DNA of 64,000 nucleotides, from positions 17,862-81,861 of the forward strand of contig CAYVDE010000002.1 in assembly GCA_964450535.1 (NCBI GenBank), in the 5' to 3' direction. The position numbers and the translations under genes were made by a program. Below the pieces are notes generated by a model that searched no databases, was not told the DNA's origin, and saw nothing but the letters and a program-made list of their open reading frames with translations. Source of the stretch: an uncultured Desulfobacterales bacterium. Its GTDB lineage: Bacteria; Desulfobacterota; DSM-4660; Desulfatiglandales; HGW-15. This document shows, in pieces, positions 8,448 to 54,408 of this stretch (position 1 is the first letter of the stretch; each line of letters starts with the position of its first letter).

Positions 8448-8801
8448 TTAGTTGGCACTTAATTCCTCCATAAGCCACCTGCGGACATCCTCGGTAAGGC
8501 CCCAGACCCCTTTATTGTGGCTGATTGATTTGAGAAAACGTTCTCTCACCATGTCCGGCAGTTCTATATGGGCCAACTCATCAGCACCTTCCGTGTCCCG
8601 GCGGATGAAAAGCACCTTTGGAGGATCCTCCCAACTCGTAATAACGAAGTAATGGGAGACGTCATTCTTGGATTTGATCATCCGGCCGTGCGACCAGTTA
8701 TTACCCCACTCCAGGTAGAGTACAATGGCCTCCTCGGGGGTCATATGCCAGTCGATGGCGTCTATCAGGTTCCTGTCTTTCCTTATTTCTTGCAATTCCA
8801 T
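8448..8801 (-). CDS. hypothetical protein
   Basis: 117-aa ORF of ordinary composition with a GGAGG-like RBS upstream. No family recognised. Confidence 0.45.
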   Translation of the reverse strand: MELQEIRKDRNLIDAIDWHMTPEEAIVLYLEWGNNWSHGRMIKSKNDVSHYFVITSWEDPPKVLFIRRDTEGADELAHIELPDMVRERFLKSISHNKGVWGLTEDVRRWLMEELSAN

Positions 8802-20901: not shown

Positions 20902-21681
20902 ATGCTTGAGCAGGAAATCAGGGCCCGGTCCAAGGTGAAACCTATTCTACTTATGGCGCATACGGTGCTGGGATATCCATCTCTCGACGGGTCCCGAAAG
21001 ATGATCAAGGCCCTGAACGGAGCCGGGGCGGACATGCTGGAACTCCAGATCCCGTTCTCGGACCCGGTGGCCGACGGCCCCGTTATCTGCCGGGCCAACG
21101 AAGAAGCGATCCAAAATGGAGCTTCGGTATCAGCTTGTCTCGGGCTGGTTCAGAAGGCTTCGGAAATATTTAGGGGCCCGGTCATAGTTATGGCCTATTA
21201 CAATACGGTGTATTGTCAAGGTGTTGAGCGTTTTGCCGAAATCCTTGCGCAGGGAGGCGCGGCAGGTGTCCTTGTTCCCGACCTTCCGCCGGAAGAGGGA
21301 GAGCGCCATTTCCATTCATTACGGTCCAACGATCTGGCCTCGATTCTCACGCTTACTCCCACCACGGCCACGAGCCGCATGGAACGCATGAACTCTTTGG
21401 GCGACGGCTTCCTCTACTGCGTGGCAAGGAGAGGTGTGACCGGCGCAGTTACCAGATTTACACCTGATGTCTCCTCCTACCTCCTTCGATGCCGCCAGGC
21501 CTCAACCCTTCCGCTCGCCGCAGGATTCGGAGTTTCCTCCAGAAAGGACGTGGAGTTTCTGGAAGGCAGGGTGGAGATACCGGTTATTGGGACCGAACTG
21601 ATCCGCCGCATGGAGGCCGGAGGACCTGAAGCGGCTATCGAATTTCTGGTATCCCTAATGGAGTCAGGTCTTGTTTTTTGA
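20902..21681 (+). CDS. trpA: tryptophan synthase alpha chain
   Basis: 259 aa. ELQIPFSDPVADGPVI active-site segment and GFGVSS phosphate-binding loop. No trpB is adjacent. Confidence 0.9.
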   Translation: MLEQEIRARSKVKPILLMAHTVLGYPSLDGSRKMIKALNGAGADMLELQIPFSDPVADGPVICRANEEAIQNGASVSACLGLVQKASEIFRGPVIVMAYYNTVYCQGVERFAEILAQGGAAGVLVPDLPPEEGERHFHSLRSNDLASILTLTPTTATSRMERMNSLGDGFLYCVARRGVTGAVTRFTPDVSSYLLRCRQASTLPLAAGFGVSSRKDVEFLEGRVEIPVIGTELIRRMEAGGPEAAIEFLVSLMESGLVF

Positions 21682-21764
21682 CTTTTTCGCAGAACCGTTG
21701 TTTATAGGGTTGTCTTAAGGAGGTTAAGGAAAGTCAAAAAAATCAAAAAACAAGACTTGACCCC
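21662..21764. repeat. inverted-repeat element, copy A (arms GTCAGGTCTTGTTTTTTGAC / TCAAAAAACAAGACTTGAC)
   Basis: Left arm 21663-21687 and right arm 21733-21764, read directly. The same arms recur at 34414-34516 and 52501-52570. Confidence 0.85.
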
Positions 21765-22437
21765 ATCGGTCGTCTATACAGGCATTCCAATCGAGCTTGA
21801 TTCGGCAGGTGTCCTTAAAGGACAGGGAATTGATCCGAAACGGGCAGGAAAGGCGCTCGTTGGCATGGCCGATGAGGTGATTCAGGAGGCACTGGCCCTA
21901 ATGACCCCTGCTTCGATTCGGAGCGTCCTGACGGTGAGGGATTTCCATCACGAAAGCATTGTGCTGGCAGAGGGGGGGGTGTTCGAAGGCCCATTGGCAT
22001 CAAGGGCCCTGGCCGGGTCTAGAGAGGTATCGGCTGCTGTCTGTACCGTTGGACCGGCCCTTGAGGCTAGAGTAAAATTGCTTTTCCCGGAAGATCCTGT
22101 GAGGGCCATGGCGCTGGACGGGGCCGGTACAGAAGCCCTTCGGCAGGTCTCCCGGTTCGTGGTTAAAGGGATACGTGAGGAGGCCACCTCAAAGGGGTGG
22201 GGTTCGGGCATGCGGGCCCAGCCGGGGCAGGAGGGTTGGTCTATCCGGCAGCAGCACGTGCTCTTCGACCTGGTACCGGCAGGCCGTATCGGGGTGCACC
22301 TGACCGACAGCGCGCTCATGATCCCGCAGAAATCGGTTTCCCTGGTGATCGGCATGGGACCGGACATGCGGCCTGACGGTGTTGCCTGTGATTACTGCTC
22401 CAAGAGGGAACGCTGCCCGTGGAGGATTTCGAGCTGA
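21757..22437 (+). CDS. methionine synthase activation-domain-like (Met_synt_B12-like) protein
   Basis: 226 aa. Overall pattern plus the LMIPQKSVSLVIGMG segment resemble stand-alone vitamin-B12-dependent methionine synthase activation-domain proteins. The TTG start lies inside repeat copy A, so the start is uncertain. Confidence 0.55.
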   Translation: MTPSVVYTGIPIELDSAGVLKGQGIDPKRAGKALVGMADEVIQEALALMTPASIRSVLTVRDFHHESIVLAEGGVFEGPLASRALAGSREVSAAVCTVGPALEARVKLLFPEDPVRAMALDGAGTEALRQVSRFVVKGIREEATSKGWGSGMRAQPGQEGWSIRQQHVLFDLVPAGRIGVHLTDSALMIPQKSVSLVIGMGPDMRPDGVACDYCSKRERCPWRISS

Positions 22438-33507: not shown

Positions 33508-34413
33508 TCACCCGGGTCCGGTTGCCGGCACACTGCAGCAGGCGGACACGCTCCGGTGAAAGGCCTCTTCCGCGGCCTTCACTTCTCTTATGCGTCCGGG
33601 GTCCAGAAAGGGCCCGTAGAGCCGGTCTTCAGGGTCCGGTTCGCGCCCCAGGAGTTTTCGTTCCAGCAGCGCGAGGGCCTGAATGGACTTGTCGCAGATT
33701 GGGTACCCCTTGTCGTCGAGAGCGATTCGGCGCTCAAGAGAAACCGAGGATACGTTGTTTATATCCACGACTTTTATGAATCCCGAGGGTGTCAGCAACA
33801 GGTTGTTCACCCCGGCCAGATCGGGGATCAATGAAGAGTCTCGAACCATTCGTTTTATGCGGTCTATGAAGGAAGCGGCCCGGTCTTTAACGGCACCCAT
33901 CGAGCCTTCCTGAGCCAAGTAGACCATGCCCGGTTCACGGTTGCGAGCTCGGACCAGGAGTTCATCCAGGAGGTTTTCCCGGAGCGGGCTCCATGGGTCC
34001 AGGGGTACTCCTTCCACGTATTCCTGGAGACCACAGAGCAGCGGGCCTCGATTCTCTCCGGAGCGGTAGTCCACCAGGAATTCCTCGGACAGAGCCACAT
34101 GCCGGGGCGAAAGGTAGTGCTCGACGAGCCTCACCCTTCGAATCTCCTTAAGGCCCTCGGAAGGCTCGCGAAAGCGGCTACGGAACACTCGAAACATCTT
34201 GACCGGCCTTGCCCGGGGAAACCGGAGGACCCCGTCCTCCATGACACCGACCCTCTCGGCGTTCACGTCATCCGGATTCAGTACCTCCAGGATGTGGGAG
34301 CGAAGACCCTGCCGGTAATGCCTCCGGAAAACGTATGGGGGGTCGGCACGGATGAAGTTGAGTCCCAGGATGTCTTCAGGTCCGATCCTGAGCCTGTCTC
34401 GAATGTCGGTCAT
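33508..34413 (-). CDS. hypothetical protein with protein-kinase-like catalytic-loop signature
   Basis: Start moved to ATG 34413 (MTDIRDRL...), because the longer track ORF runs through repeat copy B. LIPDLAGVNNLLLTPSGFIKVVDINN resembles the kinase-fold catalytic loop plus metal-binding Asp. No defined family recognised. Confidence 0.5.
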   Translation of the reverse strand: MTDIRDRLRIGPEDILGLNFIRADPPYVFRRHYRQGLRSHILEVLNPDDVNAERVGVMEDGVLRFPRARPVKMFRVFRSRFREPSEGLKEIRRVRLVEHYLSPRHVALSEEFLVDYRSGENRGPLLCGLQEYVEGVPLDPWSPLRENLLDELLVRARNREPGMVYLAQEGSMGAVKDRAASFIDRIKRMVRDSSLIPDLAGVNNLLLTPSGFIKVVDINNVSSVSLERRIALDDKGYPICDKSIQALALLERKLLGREPDPEDRLYGPFLDPGRIREVKAAEEAFHRSVSACCSVPATGPG

Positions 34414-34516
34414 GGGGTCAGGTCTTGTTTTTTGACTTTTCTGAGTTTTGTTATCCTTTTTCGGGAACTGTGTCGGCATTATTTCAGGGAAAAAGTCAAA
34501 AAACAAGATCTGACCC
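34414..34516. repeat. inverted-repeat element, copy B (GGGGTCAGGTCTTGTTTTTTGACTTTT ... AAAAGTCAAAAAACAAGATCTGACCC)
   Basis: Arms at 34414-34440 and 34491-34516 read directly, separated by about 50 nt of unique loop. Confidence 0.9.
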
Positions 34517-34572
34517 AAAGGCTTACCTACCGAAAAAATGTGCATCTGAAACGGCCCTACCAAACCGAACAA

Positions 34573-35022
34573 ATATATCGTAATATCAATATGTTAAATA
34601 AATACGCCATTGCTGTTTTACTCTCTTTACAGCCCTTCGCCTCTAATTCTGACTGAGTTTTAGAGAGCCTATAATATTGATATTCAAGCAAATTTCAGTC
34701 AAATGCACAATTATATATGATATTTTGCACATATTTTTGTGTAAATAGACATCATTATTAATCTAATTTTAAAACATTATTAATAGCATTATTTTGATTG
34801 ATTTTGAATATTATGAAAAATAAATCATTTATCAGGTACTTAAAGAGCATTTTATATTACATACCGGCTGTTTGGGCCGAAATGGGTTGAATCGAAGTTA
34901 ATGGCACGTATTTTGATAAGAAGAACGTGCTATATGGGCCTCCTAAAGTTAACCCGGCTGCTTGGGGCATCTTCCTCGCTGAATGTCTCAGACGGCGATT
35001 GGAATTCAGGAGATCAAAGGCG
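34573..35022 (+). promoter_or_regulatory. very AT-rich ~450-bp leader/promoter region of the Rhs cassette
   Basis: Composition changes abruptly against GC-rich flanks, with long A/T runs (e.g. 34680-34860). No credible ORF. It ends at the RBS (AGGAG at 35008) of the first cassette gene. Individual promoter elements not resolved. Confidence 0.4.
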
Positions 35023-38000
35023 ATGGGAATTACACGCGTGTTTCTTCTTATCTCGATTATGGCGTCTTTTTCATGGGGCGGTGTCTGCCCGCTGGTCCGG
35101 GCAAATGTCGCTGCTCCGCCGGAGATCCTCTATCTGTCTTCGGGGTCAGGGGACATAGCATTGGATTTGGAGCCGACGGACACTGAAGGTTTTTTCTTCA
35201 CAGGATGTGAGGCTCTTACCACCGTCGAGGTGGACGGGAGGCAAGTCCCTCACAATATCACTTTGGACGGTGGCGATCGTGCCATTGCAACGGCCCCGTT
35301 TTCCGGCCTCGAGGACGGAAGGCACAAGGCCGCGGCCGAGAGTCCCTGGAGCGTGGAGCAGGGCCCTTCCAGAAGGGAAGTCCTTTTTGTTGTGGACACC
35401 GAGCCTCCGGAACTCGAACTGATCGAACCGGAAACCGGGGAGCTTCAACCTAACCAGACCACCTTTCTGGTCCGTTGCCGTGACACCGTGGCCGGGGTTT
35501 CCCCGGACCCTGGTGCTTCCGGGCTCTCAATCACAATCAACGATAACGAGACGGCATGGGAATTGACTGAGGCGGACGGGGACCTGTTCTTCCTGGTCTA
35601 CTGTGTCACTCCCCAGTGGGAGCCGGATCAGGTCGTCAGGCTGCACATGAGCCTGAAGGACCGGGCAGGGAACCTTGCCGACTTGAACCGTTCCTTCAAC
35701 GTCGAGGTCCACGAGGATGAGTGGGATCTCGAGACAGTCAACTGTGTGGAAGGGGACGGCAGGACAGAGGGATTGTATGTCCTTCGTCGCATCCCTTTCC
35801 CTCTCAGGACGTCCATTCACTGGATAGGTTTTGATGCCGCGAACAGATCGATGACCCTTCCCATGGAACTGTCCACCCTTCAGGGCCTTCCTCTGGATCC
35901 CGGCATCTACGATGCCCTTGAGATAGTCGGCAACCATCCTTGCCTTCATGTGGACCGGCTTCAGAGGGCTCCGTCCGGGTCAGCTGTAGATTTCCGTGTA
36001 AGCCAGGTTTCCATGCCTGAATACAATGATTGCTTGGGGTCAATCACGATTAAATACCCCGAGTCCGTGGTTTTCGACTACGAGCTGGGCTGCCCGGAGG
36101 GGGAGCCCGGGATCATAGGTTCAGTGATGACTGCGGAAGGGCCCATGAAGAGCTACAACGTCCCTGTATCCCTCTACGGGGAGGGGGGCGGCTATTCGGA
36201 CAAGGTCCTGTTTCAGGACGGTCACCTGGTTTATCAAATTACCCTGACAGACTCGGGCGGCCTGGACACGTCGAACTCCTGGTTTGAAATGGAAGGGACA
36301 CGCGAATGGCTCACCGAGGTGGCGCAGGGGGTCTACGAGGCCTCGGTGCCCGTGATCCGGGAGGGCCTTTATGTCTATACCACGAGGCTTGCCCTTTCAG
36401 GCCTGTCGGAGTGGGGAGACGTCCGGGAAGGGGAGGTGATAGATGGGGGACGCTCTCTGCTCAAGACCGGGGACTTCTTTCTGGAACTTGACCCTCCCCT
36501 GATCGACCACTTCCACTATGACCGGGAGAACGAGTGTTTCAGGGCCATGGTGTCAGACCAGGGGACCTCGCCCGAGGACCTGGTCATGGAGTTGGTCGTT
36601 TCGGGAATCGGCGGGCTGGATCCCGGTTTCGACCCTGCCGCAGGGACCGTGGAGGCCTCGTTCCCAATGCCGGCGGGTGTTCAAGCGGGGCTTCTCAAGG
36701 TCACGGACCTGGCCGGGCAGACCACCACTGCGGTCTGCCAGGCCTTCGGCACCACGCCGCCTTCGCTTCCACTGGAGGGACACCACACAGAGTATCCGGC
36801 CACGGTCAAGGAGGCCTCGAGATCGGGATCAGTGAGGCCTTCGGGCGATTCGAGCGGGCTCAAATCCAGGCAGTACCTGGGGCAGTACAAGGACGGCAAG
36901 CAGGCTGTCGTTGAATGCATCAAAACGGCGGTTCCCGTCACAAAGGAGCACCCCCTTACGATCTGCCTGAAAGCCGCCCATGCCCGTTTCGGGACCGTCA
37001 CTGCTCCCGGTAACGAGCAGGGGTCTTCCTTGAAGATGACCTCACCGCCTGCACCGGAACCAAATCCGGCGTTAGCCCTGGCTGAAAAAGAGTGCAGGGA
37101 CAAGTACCCGCCGGGAACCCGCCACACCTGGAAATACGAATACACGGAGGAGTGCCGGAAAATATGGGTCGATACCCTTCCTCCTCGGATTCGGGACGTT
37201 ACCTTTCTGCCGGCTGGAAGGCGGGTCACCGCTCTCATCGACGATCACGGCATGCCTCTTTCGGATCTCCGCATAGGCTATTACATCACGCAGGATCCTC
37301 ACATCAACCCCTACAGCCGTATTGGGAATGCCTTCACCTTTGATACCGTAACCGGCCTGTTTGTGGGCGAGGCATCCCTGCTGAACGAGACGGAGATTTT
37401 TAAGGTCGAGATCAAGGCCACGGACGCTGCAGGGAACTGGAGCAATAACTGGCTTGAAGTAACGGCCCCGGTCAGTCCTCCGGACGTGTCTCTGGAAATC
37501 CTCAGAAAGGGGCCCGTGGCCTTCCCCTGGGGTACCTGTTATGACCGTTCGGGCATTGATCACCGAAAGACAAGAGCCTGGTTGGACGGGCGGCGTATAA
37601 ACCCTGTGGGCCTGCGCTACGGGCAATGGGCGGCAGGGCCTTCTACGGATCAGGTGGAGTTCGGGCCTGTGACCGAAGAGGGCCCCCACATGGCCCTGCT
37701 GGATGTTACGGACTTCGCCGGTCTTTCCTCCGAGGCCTCCGCCGCATTTAGTGTGTCCATCCCCCCAAAGATCGAGAACTTCCGGCATCTCCCAACGACC
37801 CTTCAGAATGCCGGAGGTCCCGCCTTCTCAGCCTTTATTCATGATAGCGGCAAAGACCTGTACCTGGAGGGCATTGAACTGGCTGTGGACGGAGCCGCCG
37901 TGGATCGGGACCGCCTCTATTATGACCCCCGGACCGGATATTTTGCAGCGGACGGTCCTATGGACCTCTGTCCAGGCATGCACCTGGCCCGGTTGACTGC

Positions 38001-39150
38001 AAGGGACGCCCACGGAAACAGCGATGAGGCCTTTCTCAGTTTTGTTCCGGGCGAGCGCATCCATATCCATGGCAAGGACCGGGGCGACCTCTCAATAGAG
38101 GAGGTGACCCTCTGGGAACTCCAGGAACACAACGGCGACGGCAAGGCCAATCCCGGTGAGACGATTCGCCTTTTCGTCAGTTTGACCAATTATGGGGCCC
38201 GAAAGCTCACCGCCGTGTCCGGACGTCTTGAGTCCCATGAGCCGGGCATTGTAGTGGAGCGGGACGAGGCCTCTTTCGGGGACCTTGAACAGGGCCGGAC
38301 GCTCACCCCGATGCATGGTTTTGACATCCGTATCGACGAGGGCTTTCTTGAAACTACATTCACCGATCCTTATGAGGCCGGTTTCACACTTGAGGCCGTT
38401 GATGAGACCGGTAAGACCTGGCTGCTTGACTTCAGTGTGCCCGTGTACCGGGCCACACTTCCGTTTCTCGTGCAGCCGGCCTCCCCCTCCCGCGGGAAGA
38501 CCGACCCTGCCGATCCCGATAGCATCTTGATCAGCGAGGTCATTGTCACCCTCGACACACTGCCTCCCAACACGGAAGAAACGGCGATCGAGGTCGCGGG
38601 TAAGGCGGTGAGCACTGCTTCGCTCATAGATGAGGTGATGGTCCGGGTAAACGGGGCCATGCACGCGCCGGACTGGAACCCCGTGGACGGGTCCTTTGTC
38701 GTGACCGTAAATCTTGACCTGGGGGACAACCTGATTGAGGCCGAGGCCGTTGACCTGACAGGCGCCATGGGCATGGACATGGGCTTTGTCCATCGCACGG
38801 CGCCGTATGTCCCTCCGGATATCCGGATCACGGAACCGGCCGACGGGGCGGACCTTGAATTGGATCCGGGATTCCTTCTGGGGAACTTCGATCCGGGGAG
38901 TTCAGCCGTGGCGAATATCCAGGCATCAATGACCGCGGAAGGGGAGACCGTTTCCTTTCCCATCGGCTATTCCAGCAGCGAGGGCGCTTTCTGGGCCGGA
39001 GGCGGGGCGCCTGAAAACCTGATCGTGTACTTCCGCCCCAACTGGGGATTTCCCACGAGGACCACTATCGTGCTGACTGTGATTCTAACCACCACGGACG
39101 GAGACACGGTGGAGGATACGGTGACCTTCACCTTTTTCATTCCACACTGA
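35023..39150 (+). CDS. large secreted multi-Ig-like-domain protein (1375 aa)
   Basis: ATG 35023 follows an AGGAG RBS and gives a signal peptide (MGITRVFLLISIMASFSWGGVCPLVRA). Recurrent Ig-like module starts (VVDTEPPELELIEP, WVDTLPPRIRDV, SPPDVSLEIL, IPPKIENF, YVPPDIRITEP). CARDB-like module NGDGKANPGETIRLFVSLTNYG. Confidence 0.7.
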   Translation: MGITRVFLLISIMASFSWGGVCPLVRANVAAPPEILYLSSGSGDIALDLEPTDTEGFFFTGCEALTTVEVDGRQVPHNITLDGGDRAIATAPFSGLEDGRHKAAAESPWSVEQGPSRREVLFVVDTEPPELELIEPETGELQPNQTTFLVRCRDTVAGVSPDPGASGLSITINDNETAWELTEADGDLFFLVYCVTPQWEPDQVVRLHMSLKDRAGNLADLNRSFNVEVHEDEWDLETVNCVEGDGRTEGLYVLRRIPFPLRTSIHWIGFDAANRSMTLPMELSTLQGLPLDPGIYDALEIVGNHPCLHVDRLQRAPSGSAVDFRVSQVSMPEYNDCLGSITIKYPESVVFDYELGCPEGEPGIIGSVMTAEGPMKSYNVPVSLYGEGGGYSDKVLFQDGHLVYQITLTDSGGLDTSNSWFEMEGTREWLTEVAQGVYEASVPVIREGLYVYTTRLALSGLSEWGDVREGEVIDGGRSLLKTGDFFLELDPPLIDHFHYDRENECFRAMVSDQGTSPEDLVMELVVSGIGGLDPGFDPAAGTVEASFPMPAGVQAGLLKVTDLAGQTTTAVCQAFGTTPPSLPLEGHHTEYPATVKEASRSGSVRPSGDSSGLKSRQYLGQYKDGKQAVVECIKTAVPVTKEHPLTICLKAAHARFGTVTAPGNEQGSSLKMTSPPAPEPNPALALAEKECRDKYPPGTRHTWKYEYTEECRKIWVDTLPPRIRDVTFLPAGRRVTALIDDHGMPLSDLRIGYYITQDPHINPYSRIGNAFTFDTVTGLFVGEASLLNETEIFKVEIKATDAAGNWSNNWLEVTAPVSPPDVSLEILRKGPVAFPWGTCYDRSGIDHRKTRAWLDGRRINPVGLRYGQWAAGPSTDQVEFGPVTEEGPHMALLDVTDFAGLSSEASAAFSVSIPPKIENFRHLPTTLQNAGGPAFSAFIHDSGKDLYLEGIELAVDGAAVDRDRLYYDPRTGYFAADGPMDLCPGMHLARLTARDAHGNSDEAFLSFVPGERIHIHGKDRGDLSIEEVTLWELQEHNGDGKANPGETIRLFVSLTNYGARKLTAVSGRLESHEPGIVVERDEASFGDLEQGRTLTPMHGFDIRIDEGFLETTFTDPYEAGFTLEAVDETGKTWLLDFSVPVYRATLPFLVQPASPSRGKTDPADPDSILISEVIVTLDTLPPNTEETAIEVAGKAVSTASLIDEVMVRVNGAMHAPDWNPVDGSFVVTVNLDLGDNLIEAEAVDLTGAMGMDMGFVHRTAPYVPPDIRITEPADGADLELDPGFLLGNFDPGSSAVANIQASMTAEGETVSFPIGYSSSEGAFWAGGGAPENLIVYFRPNWGFPTRTTIVLTVILTTTDGDTVEDTVTFTFFIPH

Positions 39151-39156
39151 ATTCGG

Positions 39157-40962
39157 ATGTCAAAAATGATTCGCAATCTCAACCTAATGCTTTTTGTAGC
39201 CGGCCTGATCGCAATGAGCCTCCCTTCATTATGTGCAGCCCAGAGCGGTCTTAGAATTCCTTATTCCGACGCAGGGGTTTTCGATCCCAATGAGGGACCG
39301 ATAAGGTTTGATTACAGGCTGTTAAAGGACGCGAGGGAGGTGGAGATACTGGTCATTGATTTTCGGGGTCAGGTCGTCGAGCGCCTGGCTTTTGTGGAAC
39401 TCACGGCCGGAGACCATGCCTTTGAATGGAGCGGCCGGGATGAGAACAACGAGAACCTGCCCAAAGGCGGATACCGTTTCGAGTTCAGGGTTACGTTCGA
39501 GGACGGGCTCGAGGAAGAAGGCGCCATGGAGGTGCGCATCGCCGCAAAGCCGGAAAAAAGGGTGATGCCTCCGCCCGACCTTTTGCCCCGGGAAGAGCCC
39601 TATCATCTAATCGACGGGTCGATCTCCACATACTGGAGGAGAAATTCAGAGGATCCGGAAGAGGTTCAAAGGATGAACGAGCAGCGCGTGTGGACGAGAC
39701 TTCGTTTGAGAGGAGAAGGCCACAGGGCTGAAGGCGTGTTTTCCATGCGCAGGCCGCATGGCGGATCGCCGACCTATGAGGGAAGCAGTGCCATGGCGGA
39801 GAAGAACTGGGAGGATGGAAGGTTGAGGGGAGTGTTCCGGCAGGGCCTTGGAAACTTCGATGACCCAATGAAACTGTTCAGCGATTTCCGCACCGAACGG
39901 AAAAAGACGGGAGTGCGCGTGGATCATGACTTCGGCCGGGCCGAAGTCAGCCTGCTCGGATTTGCCGCAGAGGGAAATATAGACGGCAATGAGCAGGGAG
40001 GAGCGTTCCGCCTGGGGCTCGAGGGGCCTTGGAAAACCAGGGCGGGGATCACCTTGACCGGGAGAAGGTCCTTGCCGGAGGAAGGCGACTCCCGTACGCG
40101 AGAGCGGGCAGGGGCAATGGACCTGGCAGTACCGCTTCACGAGACCACGGAACTGCAGTTTCAAGCTGTGGCTACGCGGGATTCAAGTGGAGTCGGGGAC
40201 ACCGGAAGCCTCGTGCGGATTGAGCACGACAGCGGAAACCTTCGGGCGTCCGCAGGCTACTATGACCTTGGCGAGGGCTTCTCCGCCCCGTTTTCCGATC
40301 CCATCAGGCGCGTGAGTTCGGACGCACGCGGCGTGGTGGCGGGGGTGGATGTTCTTCACCCGAAGACCCTCTGGGCCTTCTCGTCCGTGGCTTGCTCATT
40401 TCGCGGGTTTTCCCTCAAGCGCTGGAGCAGCGGGGAGAGTCTTCGTGAAGGAGACGCCTCCCTTCGGCTGCGCCTGGCCAAGTCCGACAGCATACTCTTT
40501 CGCTGGCTGGGACGAGAAGAGGGTGAGCAAAGGACGAACACGCTTATGGGAACCGGACGGCATGCGTGGAACGACACATGGTCAAGCTCCCTTCAGATCA
40601 ACACCACCAGTTCGGCATTTTCCAAGACCTGGCGCTGGCGGGTGGATACCTCATATCAGAAGGACGGACGCCTGTTTCGGGTCGCACTAGAGCGCGTCCG
40701 TCGAGTCATCGAGACCTCTTCGGATTCCCCCTACATCGAGACGGGCCTTCAGTTGGATGGGAACATGGAACCCTTCAGCGCCCAGATCTCCGCCCGGAAG
40801 AACAGAAGGGGAAACGAATCCGGTGTGAATCTGTTCGGAAGGGTGTCGTTCGAACCTGAACTCCTTCACCGCTACAGGGTGAACACATACTTGGCCCTTG
40901 GAAACCGGGCGGCCTTCAAGACCGAGAAGCAAATTGAGATGGGCCTGGAGATGAAATTTTGA
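39157..40962 (+). CDS. putative outer membrane beta-barrel protein with N-terminal FlgD-Ig-like domain
   Basis: Signal peptide (LMLFVAGLIAMSLPSLCAAQ). FlgD_ig-like segment EVEILVIDFRGQVVERL...AGDHAFEWSGRDENNENLPKGGYRFEF. About 450 aa of alternating-polarity strands end in GLEMKF. Starts 6 nt after the previous stop. Confidence 0.55.
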   Translation: MSKMIRNLNLMLFVAGLIAMSLPSLCAAQSGLRIPYSDAGVFDPNEGPIRFDYRLLKDAREVEILVIDFRGQVVERLAFVELTAGDHAFEWSGRDENNENLPKGGYRFEFRVTFEDGLEEEGAMEVRIAAKPEKRVMPPPDLLPREEPYHLIDGSISTYWRRNSEDPEEVQRMNEQRVWTRLRLRGEGHRAEGVFSMRRPHGGSPTYEGSSAMAEKNWEDGRLRGVFRQGLGNFDDPMKLFSDFRTERKKTGVRVDHDFGRAEVSLLGFAAEGNIDGNEQGGAFRLGLEGPWKTRAGITLTGRRSLPEEGDSRTRERAGAMDLAVPLHETTELQFQAVATRDSSGVGDTGSLVRIEHDSGNLRASAGYYDLGEGFSAPFSDPIRRVSSDARGVVAGVDVLHPKTLWAFSSVACSFRGFSLKRWSSGESLREGDASLRLRLAKSDSILFRWLGREEGEQRTNTLMGTGRHAWNDTWSSSLQINTTSSAFSKTWRWRVDTSYQKDGRLFRVALERVRRVIETSSDSPYIETGLQLDGNMEPFSAQISARKNRRGNESGVNLFGRVSFEPELLHRYRVNTYLALGNRAAFKTEKQIEMGLEMKF

Positions 40963-41060
40963 GGTCCTGTTTGTTGTGGAAGCCAAAAGCCCCGGACCCT
41001 TGTCGCACTTGGGCCTGCCAGGACGTAGTGGGGTCAGGCCGCACACAGAAAGGAACAGCC

Positions 41061-42077
41061 ATGGGAAACAGTCGCAGACTCCTGATCAGGACATTAACGA
41101 CTCTGTTCGTTTGCCTTTTTATGGGCTTTGGATGCGCGGCCCTCAGGACCGAGTTCTATCGGGGAGAGACCGCTCACCTTCTCAAAAAGGGAAACCGCTA
41201 TTATCGGAGCGGAGAGTACAAAGAGGCCCGGGCCCGCTACGAGGATGTGGTGAGGCTGGACCCCGGGTCTGCGCGGGCCCATGCCGGGCTGGGGAACATC
41301 GCGTATGTGCGGGGGGAATTCGCCACGGCCGCCGGCCTCTACCTGCAGGCCGTAACCCTTGATCCTTCGCTCGAAAAGGCACTGATGCCCCTGTACCTGG
41401 AAGCAAAGCGCCATCACGAGGCCGAGGAACTCAGAAGTCTCGGAGCGGACCTCGATCACGTGATCGAGCTTCTGACAACAGGCAGGGAGGATGATGTGGA
41501 GGCCCTGTTTGAAAAAGGCATGTCGCCCTCCAGGCTTGCCGGGCGGGCCGGATACCTCTCATCTTCAGACCAGGATCGTCTTTTGAATCTTGCAGGTGAA
41601 AAGGCCGCGGCGGGCAATGTTCCGATCATGTGCGCCCTGTTCTACGGGCACCTCCTTGCATGGGACGATCACCGGGCCTTTCACGCCGCTCGCCTTCTCA
41701 AGTCGGCCGCAGTAACGATGGAGGGACTTGAACGGCAGGAGGCGTATATGGCGCTTGGGGCGATTTACGTCCGTCTAGGCCGGGAGAACGACGCTGCCGG
41801 GGCTTATGAGCAGGCGCTCCTGGCAGGCAGCCCAGGGGAGGACGTGCTTCCGTATTTGGCTGCGCTTTACGGTGTTCCTGTGGACGCTTTTGGTGAGGTC
41901 AAAGAAATGATGATCGAATCCGCCGGGGTTGAAGACCGGTCGATTGAGACACAGACCAGCGGACGAATCTCAGGCAGCCTCAGATCATCCCCCAACCCCG
42001 GCCGGAGCGCCATGGCAGTGACCCATCACGAAGGTCCTGACCGCGGCCGGGCAGTGGAGGTGCTTCCGGTCGAATAA
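41061..42077 (+). CDS. TPR-repeat lipoprotein
   Basis: ATG 41061. Lipobox LFMGFG-C. TPR-type repeats (YYRSGEYKEARARYEDVVRLDPGSARAHAGLGNIAYVRGEFATAAGLYLQAVTLDP). Confidence 0.65.
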   Translation: MGNSRRLLIRTLTTLFVCLFMGFGCAALRTEFYRGETAHLLKKGNRYYRSGEYKEARARYEDVVRLDPGSARAHAGLGNIAYVRGEFATAAGLYLQAVTLDPSLEKALMPLYLEAKRHHEAEELRSLGADLDHVIELLTTGREDDVEALFEKGMSPSRLAGRAGYLSSSDQDRLLNLAGEKAAAGNVPIMCALFYGHLLAWDDHRAFHAARLLKSAAVTMEGLERQEAYMALGAIYVRLGRENDAAGAYEQALLAGSPGEDVLPYLAALYGVPVDAFGEVKEMMIESAGVEDRSIETQTSGRISGSLRSSPNPGRSAMAVTHHEGPDRGRAVEVLPVE

Positions 42078-42115
42078 TATAGGAACACCCTATTCTTTCA
42101 GGAGTGATAATTCCG

Positions 42116-45100
42116 ATGAAAAGAAGCTGCTTACTCATAGCGTCAGTGTTTGTGGTTTTCCTCGCCTCTCACCTGCCTGCCCGGACCATCCACCTGGGGA
42201 CCATCAAGGTCCCCACCTACAAGGTGACCGGTATCACACCCCAGTTCACGGAAGACGGCTCCCTCATGCTCACAGCCCAAGTCAACATGCCTGTTACGCC
42301 TCCCCTCAGGATCATATGGCGTTTCAAGGGGGATGACAGGGGCTATGCCTTTTTGTCCGACGAGGGGGAGTCCGTTTTACTTTCCATCGGAGAGCAGGAG
42401 GCCGGGGTGATAGTGGAGGCCTGCCTTGCCGAGGGTGAGCGCTCGGGCGGGTGCCGCTCCATCACCCTTACCGCTGCATTGCTGGACCAGGTGCAGGACG
42501 AGGCCGCGTGGAAAGACCTTCTCGTGCCCGACTTCACCGAGCCCGACTTCATATGCCAGGTCATGGAAGACGACCGGTACCAGTTCATCTTCTATGAAGT
42601 GGCCTCCCGTGTGCACACGGTTACAGGTGAGTACCTGAGGGAGAAAGAGGACCTGGCCGTGAAGGTGCCGGGAGGCATGCTCTCCATCAAACGCCAATAC
42701 CGGTCAGGCACCTGGACCTGGGACCACGAGCGGCACGATTTGACCCTCAAGCGGGGGCCGGAAGGAAATATCGACTCAATAATTAAAGGTGCCACCCAGT
42801 ACCGGGCGGTTCCTGATGATGAGGGAGTGTTTACAGACGGCATATACCACATCCACAAGACAGATGAAGGTTTCCTTTGGGAGAGCAGGCACGGCCAGTG
42901 GAAGCGGTATAACCTTGAAGGCCGGCTAACCGCCTATGGTGACCGAAACGGTGTCACAGGCCGCATCCTGTTTCAGAAAGGAAGACCCTTCTGTATTTCG
43001 GATCGGAACAACCAGGGGGTCCTATGGTTCGAGTATGACGATTCAGGTCTTCTTCGCACGGCCTATGACCAGAACAATCGCGGCGTGACATACCGCTACA
43101 GGCAAGGCTGCCTCAGTGCCGTCACCGATGTCCTTGGAAACGAGACCAGGTTCTCATACGACGAAAAGGGCAGGCTTGCAGAGGTAATCGAGCCTGAAGG
43201 TGCAAGGACTCGAATCACCTACGATCAGCTGGGCCGGGTGGTATCCATACAGAAACAAGGCAGAGAGGCGGAACCCGAGTCCGCTGCAGGACACACCTTC
43301 ACCTGGGCCTACGACCGTGACCTGTCCCTATACTATGTGGGCATAGACGACCCGTCAGGAAAACTCACCGAGATCTGGTCCAACAAAGAGGGCCAGGCTC
43401 GAAGGGTGGACATAAACGGCCGCACGGTCCACAAAACAGTAGAAAAGGACAACACCCTGGAGGTCACCGACTCACGAGGCCTCACCACCCGCAAGACCTT
43501 TGATGACAGAAGAAACCTCCTTGAAGTCATCCACCCGGACGGATCAAGAATCAAGAGGGAGTACGAGCCCCGGTTCAACAGAAAAACAAAGGAGATAAAC
43601 GAGAACAACGTTATCACTCTTTTCTCCTATGACGACAAAGGCAACCTGGTACAAAAGACAGAGGCCTCGGGCACCTCTGATGAGCGCAAAACCCAGTACA
43701 CCTATGACCCGGACGGAAACCTCCTGAGCATACGCCAACCCGGTAACCAGCATACCAGAGAAGCCGTCACCCGCTACGCCTACGACGCCTTTGGAAACCG
43801 TATCAAAGAGACCGATCCCGAGGGAAACACCACTGAGTACATGCACAATGCCCTTGGAAAAGTAATCACCAGGACCGATGCAAGAGGCAAGCGGTGGAAC
43901 TACGCCTACGACCGGGCCGGCAGGCTCGAGACCACGACGGATCCTTTGGGCTTTGTCACCAAATACTTCTATGATGCGGCGGGCAACAAGGTCCGGGAGG
44001 TCGATCCAAATGGCAGGGTGCAGCTCTTTGCCTACGACTGGGAAGGCAACCTGATCAGGGTCACGGATGCGGCAGGCAAGGAGACCTTGTTCGAGTACAA
44101 CGCGGATAACAGGCTTGTCAGGCAGATCGATCCCGAGGGCAGGTCCATTCGTTACGAATACGACACCGAGGGCAGGCTCATCAAGACCATTGACGGGAGC
44201 GGCAACGAGATCGTGACGGCGTATGAAGAGACGACCATTCCAGGGTGCCCGTCCTGCTCTGGCGGGAGTGATGCGCAGCCTTCGCACATAATATATCCCA
44301 CATTTGAAAAGGCCTTCACCTACGACCTGAGAGGCCGCAAGATCATAGAGAAAGACGTCCTGAGCGAGACAGAGGAGTATGAGACCCTGTTCAACTATGA
44401 CGACCTGGGCAATCTGATCGCAAAGACCGACAAGGAAGGCAGGACCACGACCCACAAGTACGACTCATTGAACAGGGTCACCAGGGTTGTGGATCCTCTG
44501 AACCAGGAGACCCAGTACTACTATGACAACCGCAACAACCTGATCCGCCTCACCGACGCCAAGGGCCAGGCCACGCAGTTTGAGTATGACCTGAACAACA
44601 GGCTCATTAAGGAGATCAGGCCCATGGGCCAGGAGACCTCATACTCATATGACGGTGAGGGCAATCTCATAGAGAAGCTCGATGCCAAGGGTCAGAAGAC
44701 CGAGTACGGGTACGATGATGCGGGCAGGTTAGCTGGGATCCGATACTACAATACAACTGAGCAATCAACACCGGTCAAGACCGTGACCTTTGCCTATGAC
44801 GAGGCTGGCAACCTGATATCCTACAATGACGGCTCCACATCGGGCTCATACACATATGACGCCGCTTACAGAAAGACCTCTGAAACGGTGGATTACGGCT
44901 CATTCTCCAAATCCATTAGTTACACCTACCATGGCAACGGTCTCAAAAAGACATACACGGACCCGGAGGGCGTGACCTATGCCTACGTCTACAACGCCAA
45001 CAACCAGCTCGCAGAGGTCCGGATACCGGGGCAGGGCTCCATCACCCATACGTCCTACAACTGGACCAGGCCTGAGGCCATAACCCTACCGGGCGGATCC

Positions 45101-52487: not shown

Positions 52488-54408
52488 ACCCGAACCCATT
52501 GGGGTCAGGTCTTGTTTTTGACTTTTCAGCTTCGTTTTCGATTCCCCGGATTGCCCGGCAAGACCTGATTCCATCATGTGGCACTGCAAGGGCAAGATAG
52601 CTGTCCCCCTCCCGGTACATCAGCCTCTTGTCCACCATCATGCGCAGGAAACCCCGGAGACGGTCCTCTGCGTGCCCTGGGAAACAGCCGATGATTTCCC
52701 GGAACGAGCGGGTTCGATCGCAGAAAAGGTAGATTTCCCGTGAGTCCCCCTGGAGTCGATGGGTCATGGCATCAGTCCCTTTTCGCCTTTGGAGGATTAT
52801 AAGGAAGTCTCCGCCGTCCCGGAAGGACAGGATAGGCCCGCTTCGAGGCAGCCGGTGCAGTTCGTTGTAAGATCTCTGCCACTCCCGGACGCGATCCCGT
52901 ACAGGCCGCCATATCTTATGACTGCTGCGCACGCCTCCATGATAGCCCTGGACCATGAGCGTAAGGCCCTGGAGGATGCGGGCTGGAAAGAGTTGGCCAT
53001 AGTATCGGTGATTGAACGTCTTTCGAATGCCATACCTCCTGGGAGCGTCCCAAAACGGGCTTCCCAGACCCAGCCAGAAGAAAACCGTCTTAAGAGGTCT
53101 GAAGCACTGGACAAACTCGAGGGTCCTGAGGGTCTCGGCAATATCGTTTTCATCGCTTCCCGGCACATGGAGGATCAGGTTTCCCGCCAGCTCCGGCATG
53201 CCCGGCATCTCGCAACGCTTCATGATCTCGAGGTTGTTGAGGACGGTCGTGCCTTTGCGGAGTTTGCGGAGAAGGCTTGTGCTTAAGGCCTCTATGCCCA
53301 CCTGGACTTCCCGCATGCCTGCGGCGGCCATGACCTCGAGGTCCTCGGGGGGCGTGGTGGCCCGGATCTCGCCGAAGAACTTGAAATCCCTGGAAAGACG
53401 GGCCACTCCTCCAAAGACGGCCTGGGATTGCCCGGCCGGGAGGAGGTTGTCCATGAACGCGACGGAGAGCACCCGGTGGGTGCGGGTGAGCTCGTCTATC
53501 TCACGCACGACCCTGTCGGGGGATTTGGCCCGGTAGCCCTTCCACTGGAGGTTCAGGTTGCAAAACCGGCAGCCGCGTTCCTTTCCTGTGGGAGATACCC
53601 CCCTCCACCAGCATCCGCGCGATATCTCCACAGGCAACTCCGGGATGAATCGTGAGTCCCGGGGCAAGGAATCGAGGGCTTCAAAGTATTCTCCGTAATC
53701 CGGAAGGGGGAGCAGGTCAAGATGAGACACCTGGCTGAAGGATCCATTGTCTGGGCCTTGCCGGGGCAGGAGGCCGGGAAAGGGCCGGACGCGGGCCTTT
53801 TTACTGTTAAGTGAAGACCTGGCAAGGTGGAGGAGGGGCTCCTCACCCTCTCCGCTGACCACGAAGTCGAGGTCCGGGAAGGTGTCGAGAATGCTCCGAC
53901 CCATGGCCCCGGCACAGGCCGATCCACCCGCAGCAAGGACGGACGAGGGTGCCAGGCTTCGTATCCTGCGGGCGAAATAAAGGGAGCTTGTGAGTTGCCC
54001 CAGGCAGATGGAGAACCCAACCAGCCGGTAGCGTTTCCACGGAATCCCTTTTAAAAAACTTTCGGTGGCTTCTTCGAGGCGGCCGCAGACAGAGGCAAGG
54101 ACGTCCTTGCCGGCCAAAGGAGCGCCGCGTGCCTTTCTTTCCCAGAGGCGGTAAATGTCATCTCTCTTCTCAGGGTAGAGAAGAGCGGCGTAAGGGGCCT
54201 CGGCGAGCCAGGTCCGTTTGGATATGGGACTGTAAAGAGAGTATCCGAGGTCCGCCGCAATGGGAAGATATGCGTGAAGGGCATGGATGCGGGCGTCGGG
54301 CAGGAAGGCGCCTACATAGGCCTTTAATGCCCCGAGTTGTATGGAAGGCCGGTTGAAAAGGGGCCAGGGGGCCGAGACCAGGGCGATATGCGGAGGGTCT
54401 TGTGCCAT
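52426..54408 (-). CDS. B12-binding-domain radical SAM protein (RiPP-maturation C-methyltransferase-like)
   Basis: 660 aa. N-terminal B12-binding-like region (IALVSAPWPLFNRPSIQLGALKAY...). Cluster motif RGCWW...GCRFCNLNLQWKGYRAKSP resembles the CWW...CxFCGLN signature as I recall it for that family. Confidence 0.7.
   Translation of the reverse strand: MAQDPPHIALVSAPWPLFNRPSIQLGALKAYVGAFLPDARIHALHAYLPIAADLGYSLYSPISKRTWLAEAPYAALLYPEKRDDIYRLWERKARGAPLAGKDVLASVCGRLEEATESFLKGIPWKRYRLVGFSICLGQLTSSLYFARRIRSLAPSSVLAAGGSACAGAMGRSILDTFPDLDFVVSGEGEEPLLHLARSSLNSKKARVRPFPGLLPRQGPDNGSFSQVSHLDLLPLPDYGEYFEALDSLPRDSRFIPELPVEISRGCWWRGVSPTGKERGCRFCNLNLQWKGYRAKSPDRVVREIDELTRTHRVLSVAFMDNLLPAGQSQAVFGGVARLSRDFKFFGEIRATTPPEDLEVMAAAGMREVQVGIEALSTSLLRKLRKGTTVLNNLEIMKRCEMPGMPELAGNLILHVPGSDENDIAETLRTLEFVQCFRPLKTVFFWLGLGSPFWDAPRRYGIRKTFNHRYYGQLFPARILQGLTLMVQGYHGGVRSSHKIWRPVRDRVREWQRSYNELHRLPRSGPILSFRDGGDFLIILQRRKGTDAMTHRLQGDSREIYLFCDRTRSFREIIGCFPGHAEDRLRGFLRMMVDKRLMYREGDSYLALAVPHDGIRSCRAIRGIENEAEKSKTRPDPNGFGFSPAAAGSPGESDGSPCPPG
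52501..52570. repeat. inverted-repeat element, copy C (full left arm, degenerate right arm)
   Basis: GGGGTCAGGTCTTGTTTTTGACTTTTC at 52501-52527. Partial complementary CAAGACCTGA at 52559-52568. Confidence 0.75.

Follow-up and report, generated by a model that had tools for sequence, protein, structure and literature searches.

Orphan inverted repeats at gene boundaries of an uncultured Desulfobacterales genome are probably the ends of a TIRtron with a RAYT-type transposase

Three copies of a hairpin-forming repeat were located at gene ends or starts in the window analyzed here, a stretch of 64,000 nucleotides from the forward strand of an uncultured Desulfobacterales genome (assembly GCA_964450535.1, contig CAYVDE010000002.1, positions 17,862 to 81,861). 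The genome, G000 in this work, is a metagenome-assembled genome (MAG) of 3.77 Mb in 288 contigs, with 56.5% G+C and 96% completeness; positions given without a contig label are those of the window. From left to right, the copies lie beside trpA and a 226-aa gene downstream of it (copy B), a minus-strand 301-aa gene (copy A), and a radical-SAM gene and a 69-aa open reading frame (ORF) (copy C). In each of them the arm GGGGTCAGGTCTTGTTTTTTGAC(TTTT) was read as an inverted pair, at 34414-34516 (A), 21660-21764 (B) and 52501-52574 (C), within 1-2 nt of the positions proposed in an initial annotation of this DNA. The results presented below indicate that these arms are probably the terminal inverted repeats (TIRs) of a TIRtron with a Y1/HUH transposase of the REP-associated tyrosine transposase (RAYT) type, and that the three window copies are gene-less, orphan ends. 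RAYT-like genes with long flanking inverted repeats have been named TIRYTs, and the units that they form TIRtrons (Di Nocera, De Gregorio, Rocco 2013, PMC3733652).

With a 24-nt arm probe and up to three mismatches allowed, four matches were found in the window against 0.00 expected, and none was obtained in 100 shuffled sequences (0/100); copy C, which is one T shorter, falls outside this probe and was recovered by blastn and with a 12-mer. The 7-nt insertion described earlier in the right arm of copy B is present and is a duplication, and only the outer part of the degenerate right arm of copy C is kept (Table 1). A long hairpin is predicted for each copy, with folding much stronger than that of shuffled sequence, both as RNA (minimum free energies of -46.6, -37.3 and -30.6 kcal/mol for A, B and C, with z-scores of -7.4, -4.6 and -4.7) and as DNA (z-scores of -6.8, -4.3 and -3.8). 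Pairs fold, whereas a lone arm does not (dG -1 kcal/mol, z -0.2 to -0.8, with 44-75 of 200 shuffles folding as well). An intrinsic terminator was rejected because the stems are A/T-rich in their inner half and, as had been noted before, no T-tract follows any of the hairpins, the next letters being AAAGG (A), ATCGG (B) and ATCATG (C). An integron attC site was also rejected, since the arm ends lack the RYYYAAC ... GTTRRRY cores; no integron integrase appeared in Pfam scans of 16 ORFs flanking or inside the segment between copies A and C, the ORFs between B and A not having all been scanned. A literature search by arm sequence returned only unrelated primer matches.

Table 1. Positions of the repeat copies and of the enclosed segment in the window.
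Feature	Position	Strand	Length	Remarks
Copy B left arm	21660-21687	+		GGAGTCAGGTCTTGTTTTTTGACTTTTT; GGAG instead of GGGG; gives trpA its last 7 codons (MESGLVF) and TGA stop
Copy B right arm	21730-21764	-		internal 7-nt TCAAAAA duplication; contains TTG 21757-21759
Copy A left arm (TIR)	34414-34440	+		GGGGTCAGGTCTTGTTTTTTGACTTTT; 0 mismatches to probe; outer end fits GGGGWSAS (PMC3733652)
Copy A loop	34441-34490			unlike the loops of other copies and the TIRtron interior; homologous to the loops of orthologous copies in the relatives G002 and G004
Copy A right arm (TIR, inverted)	34491-34516	-		AAAAGTCAAAAAACAAGATCTGACCC; single mismatch to left arm (A for G)
Copy C unit	52493-52576		84 nt	exactly absent at the orthologous site of G002; left arm full, right arm truncated
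Copy C left arm	52501-52526			full, one T shorter
Copy C right arm	52559-52574		16 nt	CAAGACCTGATTCCAT; outer 16 nt alone
Segment between copies A and C	34414-52576		18.2 kb	copies A and C within ~3 nt of both junctions; context, not part of the repeat

The placement of the copies exactly at gene boundaries, already pointed out in the initial annotation, was confirmed. The stop codon of trpA (TGA, 21679-21681) lies inside the left arm of copy B, while the CAT at 34411-34413, start codon of the 301-aa gene, abuts the outer GGGG end of copy A, and the homology of this gene to its orthologues ends at that same point. The 226-aa gene (21757-22437) has the TTG at 21757, in the right arm of copy B, as its first in-frame start and the sole one upstream of its conserved part. 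No Shine-Dalgarno sequence precedes this TTG, and the first ~12 residues are unlike those of the orthologues in the relatives G005 and G001, which have an upstream region of their own and an ATG start; copy B may give the gene its start codon. Copy C lies 3' of the 69-aa ORF and within the tail of the radical-SAM reading frame, to which it adds 28 in-frame codons. On the minus strand (52426-52580) this frame passes the end of its homology with G001 (...AVRLRRNR*), runs through copy C and enters the antisense of the 69-aa ORF (52278-52487), and its true C-terminus is uncertain.

Three unrelated genes end in M(G/E)SGLVF-stop inside an arm, namely trpA (21658-21681), a WecB-like epimerase gene (C56:2889-3992) and a PutA/aldehyde-dehydrogenase-like gene (C1:6901-9408). 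Since all of the ORFs seen entering an arm (3/3) use the same quick-stop frame, these sequences suggest selection on which insertions survive. The present effects of the arms on gene ends and starts, and the stable hairpins that they place in 5' or 3' untranslated regions, are regarded as incidental. The ATG or TTG formerly noted at the outer end holds for the window copies and for the genus, in which the arm begins (A)ATGGGG, but not as a feature of the whole family, since the bases that precede GGGG vary among phyla. For the same reason the mini-ORF ATG GGG TCA GGT CTT GTT/GAA TTT TGA (MGSGL[VE]F) was rejected as a conserved peptide, its ATG being genus-specific.

The repeat is not confined to the window. 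A genome-wide search detected four more arms, where none is expected by chance, all of them single (C56:3969, C1:6924, C115:8346 and a truncated one at C49:19568), so that the genome holds three pairs and four singles, all gene-less. The arm was also found in same-genus relatives, with 19 copies in G001, 17 in G003, 17 in G006 and six in the incomplete G005, all carrying AA instead of TT at core positions 14-15. Many of these arms form inverted pairs with the GGGG ends outward, outer-to-outer spans of 57-923 nt and unrelated loops, and others are single. Short-read assembly is broken by the repeat, as several contigs of the relatives end inside a pair. Sister species differ in the number and positions of the copies, and the flanking genes have no common function.

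The transposase, which the initial annotation had proposed to look for, was found between the arms in two of these relatives, with only a relic in the genome under study. In G003, inverted arms at C33:50(+) and C33:972(-) bracket a single 291-aa ORF, and an equivalent unit is present in G001 (C103). The 291-aa protein matches Pfam Y1_Tnp (6.8e-14) followed by the helix-turn-helix (HTH) families HTH_23/HTH_28, and reaches 86.6 bits on NCBIfam NF047646, REP-associated tyrosine transposase (equivalog, cut-off 80). This finding of arms flanking a Y1_Tnp and HTH gene in sister species supports the earlier view of a mobile, REP- or MITE-like palindromic element (MITE standing for miniature inverted-repeat transposable element) rather than a terminator. 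Apart from a disrupted unit in G006, all genes found between two arms were Y1/HUH.

Additionally, 7-9 homologues located beside arms in different phyla (alignment A1) are 49-74% identical and share an invariant HUH motif (NHYHLL), the catalytic tyrosine (RYIVLNPVRA), the C-terminal HTH and HYSTVSR. When a profile of seven of these TIRYT homologues was compared with solved structures, the best match was E. coli TnpA-REP (PDB 4ER8, E=0.0012), aligned over the HUH and tyrosine motifs; a search of PDB with a single TIRYT sequence gave no hits. The architecture of the unit is also constant. It spans ~925 bp and comprises a 5' TIR, a spacer of ~45 nt and the TIRYT gene, which runs into the 3' TIR. 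The distance from the start of the 5' TIR to the ATG is 45-47 nt, sometimes 53-54, across phyla. At six loci the 3' TIR overlaps the last five codons and the stop, with its outer end exactly 4 nt beyond the stop, and the peptide tail encoded inside it is S-K-x-K-T-stop or close to it (SNFKT or SQFKT, for example). Arms on both sides of the gene were found at six loci of other phyla (L019, L072, L102, L107, L136 and L043), the 3' arm of L043 lying 33 nt beyond the stop.

These features were compared with those published. TIRYT repeats have a common GGGGWSAS motif and form 'moderately abundant' families as singles, dimers or groups (PMC3733652), and most TIRYTs belong to TnpA-REP subclass 2.1 (Quentin, Siguier, Chandler, Fichant 2018, PMC6006769), whose distinguishing feature is an HTH or Bac_DnaA_C-like domain at the C-terminus. 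The arm fits GGGGWSAS at its outer end, which reads GGGGTCAG in A, in C and in every genus copy, with one mismatch in copy B (GGAGTCAG), and the HTH tail of the transposase matches subclass 2.1. With this arm start and the HTH, every testable feature of a TIRtron was found. The REP/MITE label given before is apt in so far as the element is REP-like, but the arm is not a palindrome, carries no GTAG tag and leaves no target-site duplication, and it is neither a canonical REP nor a MITE of a DDE transposon. A non-palindromic arm without GTAG points to the TIR/TIRtron (TIRYT) variant, and the lack of target-site duplication speaks against a DDE origin.

A single cognate TIRYT copy was found per genome, beside the same neighbor gene (ending ...YYYDLLPD*) in G001, G003, G006 and the relic of G000. 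Paralogous TIRYT genes were observed as well, one to five per sister genome (L177-L186; G001, G003, G004, G006, G007 and G008) and none in the genome under study. They encode 332-361 aa with the N-terminus MPRxARIDAPGALHH and are 35-43% identical. At least some of them have their own, different inverted repeats, beginning AGGGGACGT... or GGGACGGGGATAAA... (TIRs of the (A)GGGGACG type), as would be expected from a pattern of one enzyme and one repeat.

No intact Y1 transposase exists in the 288-contig assembly, in which no Y1_Tnp match reaches the Pfam cut-off. The cognate gene is reduced to a relic of ~200 bp (C115:8373-8563), with pieces of residues ~162-207 and 258-277, adjoining the single arm at C115:8346. 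Beside this relic lies a gene (...MRYYYDLLPD*) that shares 79.5% identity over 1296 nt with the neighbor of the TIRtron of G001. Therefore, the TIRtron has occupied one locus since the ancestor of the genus and has decayed here. The cognate gene is also in pieces in G002 and is truncated after 53 residues in G006. In the absence of an intact Y1 transposase, the three window copies and the four single arms are most likely stranded, non-autonomous relics. A third transposase pseudogene may exist elsewhere in the genome (C144:4823-5128), where a weak Y1-like match, broken by TAG and TAA stops, is 27% identical to residues 82-184 of TIRYT.

A second repeat of the GGGGWSAS type, (T/C)CGGGGACACCATAC..., was also observed in this genome outside the window, with 14 copies against 0 of the reversed control. 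The copies, mostly inverted pairs 110-180 nt apart, are located at C1:41829-41960, C37:16817-16942, C63:17296-17404, C217:2151-2330, C199:581-3324 and C230:2432. The pair C199:2607/3324 encloses the only sub-threshold Y1_Tnp fragment of the genome (C199:2759-2893, 20.9 bits), and the repeat is probably another decayed TIRtron with its own orphan TIRs. In G001 and G006 it often lies beside the first family. Other repeats were seen in the spacer that follows the homologue of the 69-aa ORF: tandem CCGTGGTTCGTGG-type units in both orientations in G001 (L199, C69 ~21560-21930), and TATAGGGACG(T) units followed by the perfect palindrome GGGTAAAAAACCCCAGTTTCTGCGAGAAACTGGGGTTTTTTACCC in G006 (L201, C173 ~8540-8700).

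The age of the window copies was addressed by comparison with orthologous sites. Copies A and B are older and shared. Copy A, with a homologous loop, occupies the orthologous site in G002 and G004, where its arms have decayed, with 4 and 3 mismatches in G002 and a left arm almost erased in G004. To judge by these alignments, the arms decay as neutral sequence would and as a hairpin under host selection would not, which speaks against a conserved function for the host. At the site of copy B, G002 has a different TIR remnant, a short and degenerate pair, and its trpA ends at its own TAA; since this remnant occupies the site, a clean empty site for copy B was unobtainable. The trpA of the window reads into the arm through an indel and ends ...MESGLVF*.

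Copy C behaved differently. The closest relative, G002, is collinear over this region (C132), with flanks 95% and 88% identical, and lacks exactly the 84 nt at 52493-52576. This precise difference indicates that the pair acts as a single unit without duplicating its target, no such duplication being detected at this filled/empty site or at perfect pairs in other phyla, as expected for HUH/Y1 'peel and paste' enzymes. In other metagenomes (runs X3 and X7), contigs of strains ~98% identical span copy C intact, and no joints that would reveal a presence/absence polymorphism of this copy were seen there. Moreover, two loci of G001 (L007 and L016) with different flanks have an identical arm and loop over the 34 nt visible, which fits the copying of whole pairs. 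The loops were rejected as deletion remnants of the TIRtron interior, with which they share only 7-9-nt chance matches.

The distribution of the arm was then extended beyond the genus. An exact scan for the 21-nt core GGGTCAGGTCTTGWWTTTTGA in one genome per species (596 Gb, ~1 chance match expected by our calculation) found it at no fewer than 120 loci (in 73 assemblies or more, whose labels cover more than 15 phyla). Among the labels are Desulfobacterota, Nitrospirota, Nitrospinota, Elusimicrobia, Spirochaetes, Chlorobi, Actinomycetota, Acidobacteriota, Clostridia, Thermotogae, Dehalococcoidia and Omnitrophota, as well as Alpha- and Gammaproteobacteria, among them Legionella longbeachae. Among the matches listed, conservation ends sharply outside GGGG...TTTTGA, a TIRYT adjoins the arm in 13 of 120 (the other 107 having none within the stretch taken), and 23 of the 29 multi-copy assemblies show a single variant at the two W positions of the core. 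Each of the genomes sampled across the phylum has a variant of its own. Within the phylum, the core with at most one mismatch was present in 34 of 401 genomes (27 of 255 genera) at 1-17 copies each, whereas the reversed-pattern control was present in none (0/401).

The precise 84-nt difference without duplication and the single repeat variant of most multi-copy genomes give indirect support to the idea that the transposase binds, cuts or moves its TIRs. By analogy with TnpA-REP and the IS200/IS605 enzymes, the TIRYT probably acts on single-stranded DNA at replication forks. An inverted pair on a single DNA strand would fold into a long hairpin with its GGGG ends outward, and the transposase would make its cut beside GGGG/CCCC, where the hairpin has its foot, and mobilize the entire pair with no target duplication, while the HTH may read the conserved 22-bp core. 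A bolder proposal, which we consider rather doubtful, is that the 22-bp core GGGGTCAGGTCTTGWWTTTTGA marks one ancient TIRtron lineage across many phyla, in which an essentially invariant DNA end accompanies transposases that have diverged to ~45-55% identity, and that hairpin pairs also serve as break or rejoin points for chromosomal rearrangement, given that A and C sit at both segment junctions. If this were true, end recognition would be unusually rigid and sequence-specific, perhaps through reading of the duplex or of the stem of the hairpin by the C-terminal HTH, unlike the hairpin-plus-guide recognition of REP and IS200/IS605 ends, and repeated horizontal transfer of the lineage would be possible.

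Several observations weigh against the assignment of the arms to a TIRtron or limit it. Co-occurrence is loose, with a TIRYT (E<=1e-50) in 16 of the 33 other arm-positive genomes of the phylum and in 66 of 367 arm-negative ones; under so strict a pattern this is an enrichment and no strict rule. The MAG is 96% complete in 288 contigs, and an intact transposase could sit in unassembled sequence. The left arm of copy A is still a perfect match although the copy predates the split from G002 and G004, which may point to later activity, to gene conversion or to selection in this lineage. Mobility rests on one filled/empty comparison, in which insertion in G000 and precise loss in G002 cannot be polarized, and a single pair of copies in one genome (the G001 loci above) has an identical loop at different flanks. 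The loops of most pairs show no relation to one another or to the TIRtron interior. Finally, biochemical work on any TIRYT was not found in the searchable literature, and for this reason cutting and mobilization are inferred.

One of the other explanations takes the arms to be primarily sites of recombination or rearrangement, A and C having mediated the insertion or translocation of the 18-kb Rhs segment. This segment contains an outer-membrane trio with Rhs and a cluster of Mo-oxidoreductase, 4Fe-4S (ferredoxin) and GltD-like genes. The initial annotation had taken copy B as the left boundary of the Rhs cassette region, but B lies ~13 kb from the cassette; the left boundary is marked by copy A, and the right end of the segment by copy C. 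The segment, whose junctions lie within ~3 nt of A and C, splits the pair of radical-SAM and 301-aa genes, which are only 42-44 nt apart in G001, G003 and G005, and the outermost arms of A and C are inverted with GGGG outward, as in a TIRtron. However, G002 has the right junction without copy C, which is thus not needed to keep the segment, and no breakpoint is detectable at copy B or at the four single arms. The segment has genus-core DNA in its right part, located elsewhere in G001, G003, G006 and G007 (beside pdxA in the last two), which indicates a rearrangement and not a simple foreign or mobile island, and Pfam scans of the flanking and segment ORFs revealed no integrase or transposase inside it. 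This explanation is considered unlikely, and such rearrangement would in any case be a side effect compatible with the TIRtron.

It is also improbable, and slightly more so, that the hairpins are host-selected RNA elements (stabilizers of mRNA 3' ends, partial terminators or 5'-untranslated-region regulators) whose likeness to transposon ends is secondary. REP-type hairpins are known to stabilize transcripts at 3' regions or between convergent genes, and the RNA hairpins described here are stable, with copy B in the 3' region of trpA and copy C between convergent genes. Nevertheless, conservation resides in the arm sequence and not in compensatory pairing, single arms that do not fold are as common as pairs, and copies in either orientation occur inside reading frames and at both 5' and 3' ends. 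The decay of the orthologous A copies, with the left arm of G004 essentially gone, the lack of a T-tract behind the hairpins and the absence of any family match in an Rfam scan of the whole window at gathering thresholds point in the same direction.

The interpretation as true MITEs, internally deleted copies of a DDE insertion sequence mobilized in trans, is very improbable. Non-coding units of ~100 bp with ~27-nt terminal inverted repeats at gene boundaries would suit it, but target-site duplications are missing both at the one filled/empty site and at perfect pairs in other phyla, the loops resemble neither each other nor the interior of an element, and no parent DDE insertion sequence was found, only the Y1/HUH gene lying between two arms (the disrupted G006 unit apart). 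The arms are least of all likely to be operators of a DNA-binding regulator, possibly the TIRYT HTH acting as a repressor, that define a regulon and not a mobile family: the conserved HTH at the C-terminus, the fixed 45 nt between the arm and the TIRYT start downstream of it, a place suited to an autoregulatory operator, and the arms abutting the starts of two window genes are outweighed by a genome that keeps the arms having lost the protein, by the many arms that overlap gene 3' ends, and by copy numbers and positions that vary among sister species beside genes with no common function.

The TIRtron thus stands as the preferred explanation, and an odd feature of the window is explained as a known type of selfish DNA. 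The kind of element has already been described; what is seen here is its orphan, decaying state. A little-studied family gains a nucleotide-level description of a TIR core common to many phyla, together with a filled/empty site at which a hairpin pair appears as one unit with no target duplication. A clean orphan case, in which the repeats outlive the transposase and their orthologues visibly decay, bears on whether host benefit keeps such repeats. In addition, the arms create or alter gene ends and break short-read assemblies, and recognizing them prevents mis-annotation.

Compared with known systems, the element shares with bacterial MITEs (RUP, NEMIS/Correia, ERIC) a non-coding length of ~100 bp, terminal inverted repeats, a location at gene boundaries and the capacity to supply stops, starts and RNA hairpins. 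MITEs differ in deriving from DDE insertion sequences and in having target-site duplications and conserved interiors, none of which was found here. The IS200/IS605 family (TnpA, Y1) has the same HUH/Y1 chemistry, lack of target duplication and precise excision, and the presumed substrate is likewise a single-stranded hairpin, but its ends are two different subterminal hairpins instead of inverted repeats, and in that family the transposase gene multiplies, whereas the ends alone multiply here and the gene stays single-copy.

The REP/REPIN-RAYT systems (Nunvar 2010; Bertels and Rainey 2011; E. coli TnpA-REP) are closer. They belong to the same enzyme superfamily, 4ER8 being the best solved match, and have a single-copy, vertically inherited gene at a fixed locus, flanked by its own repeat; their doublets fold into hairpins, leave no target duplication and occur at gene ends. 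In contrast to them, the arm carries no GTAG or CGTC tag and begins (A)ATGGGG in the genus and nGGGG elsewhere, the single unit is not palindromic, copies number tens and not hundreds, doublet spacers are unrelated in length and sequence, and the protein has an extra HTH domain. The closest likeness is to the TIRtrons themselves, with a RAYT-like Y1/HUH gene flanked by long inverted repeats, GGGGWSAS ends, a C-terminal HTH, repeats present at 1-19 per genome as singles, dimers or groups, and one flanking repeat overlapping the 3' end of the gene. The published common motif is 8 nt long, whereas the 21-nt core described here is identical in no fewer than 73 assemblies, and the genome of the window adds an orphan state with a decayed gene and a documented filled/empty site free of target duplication.

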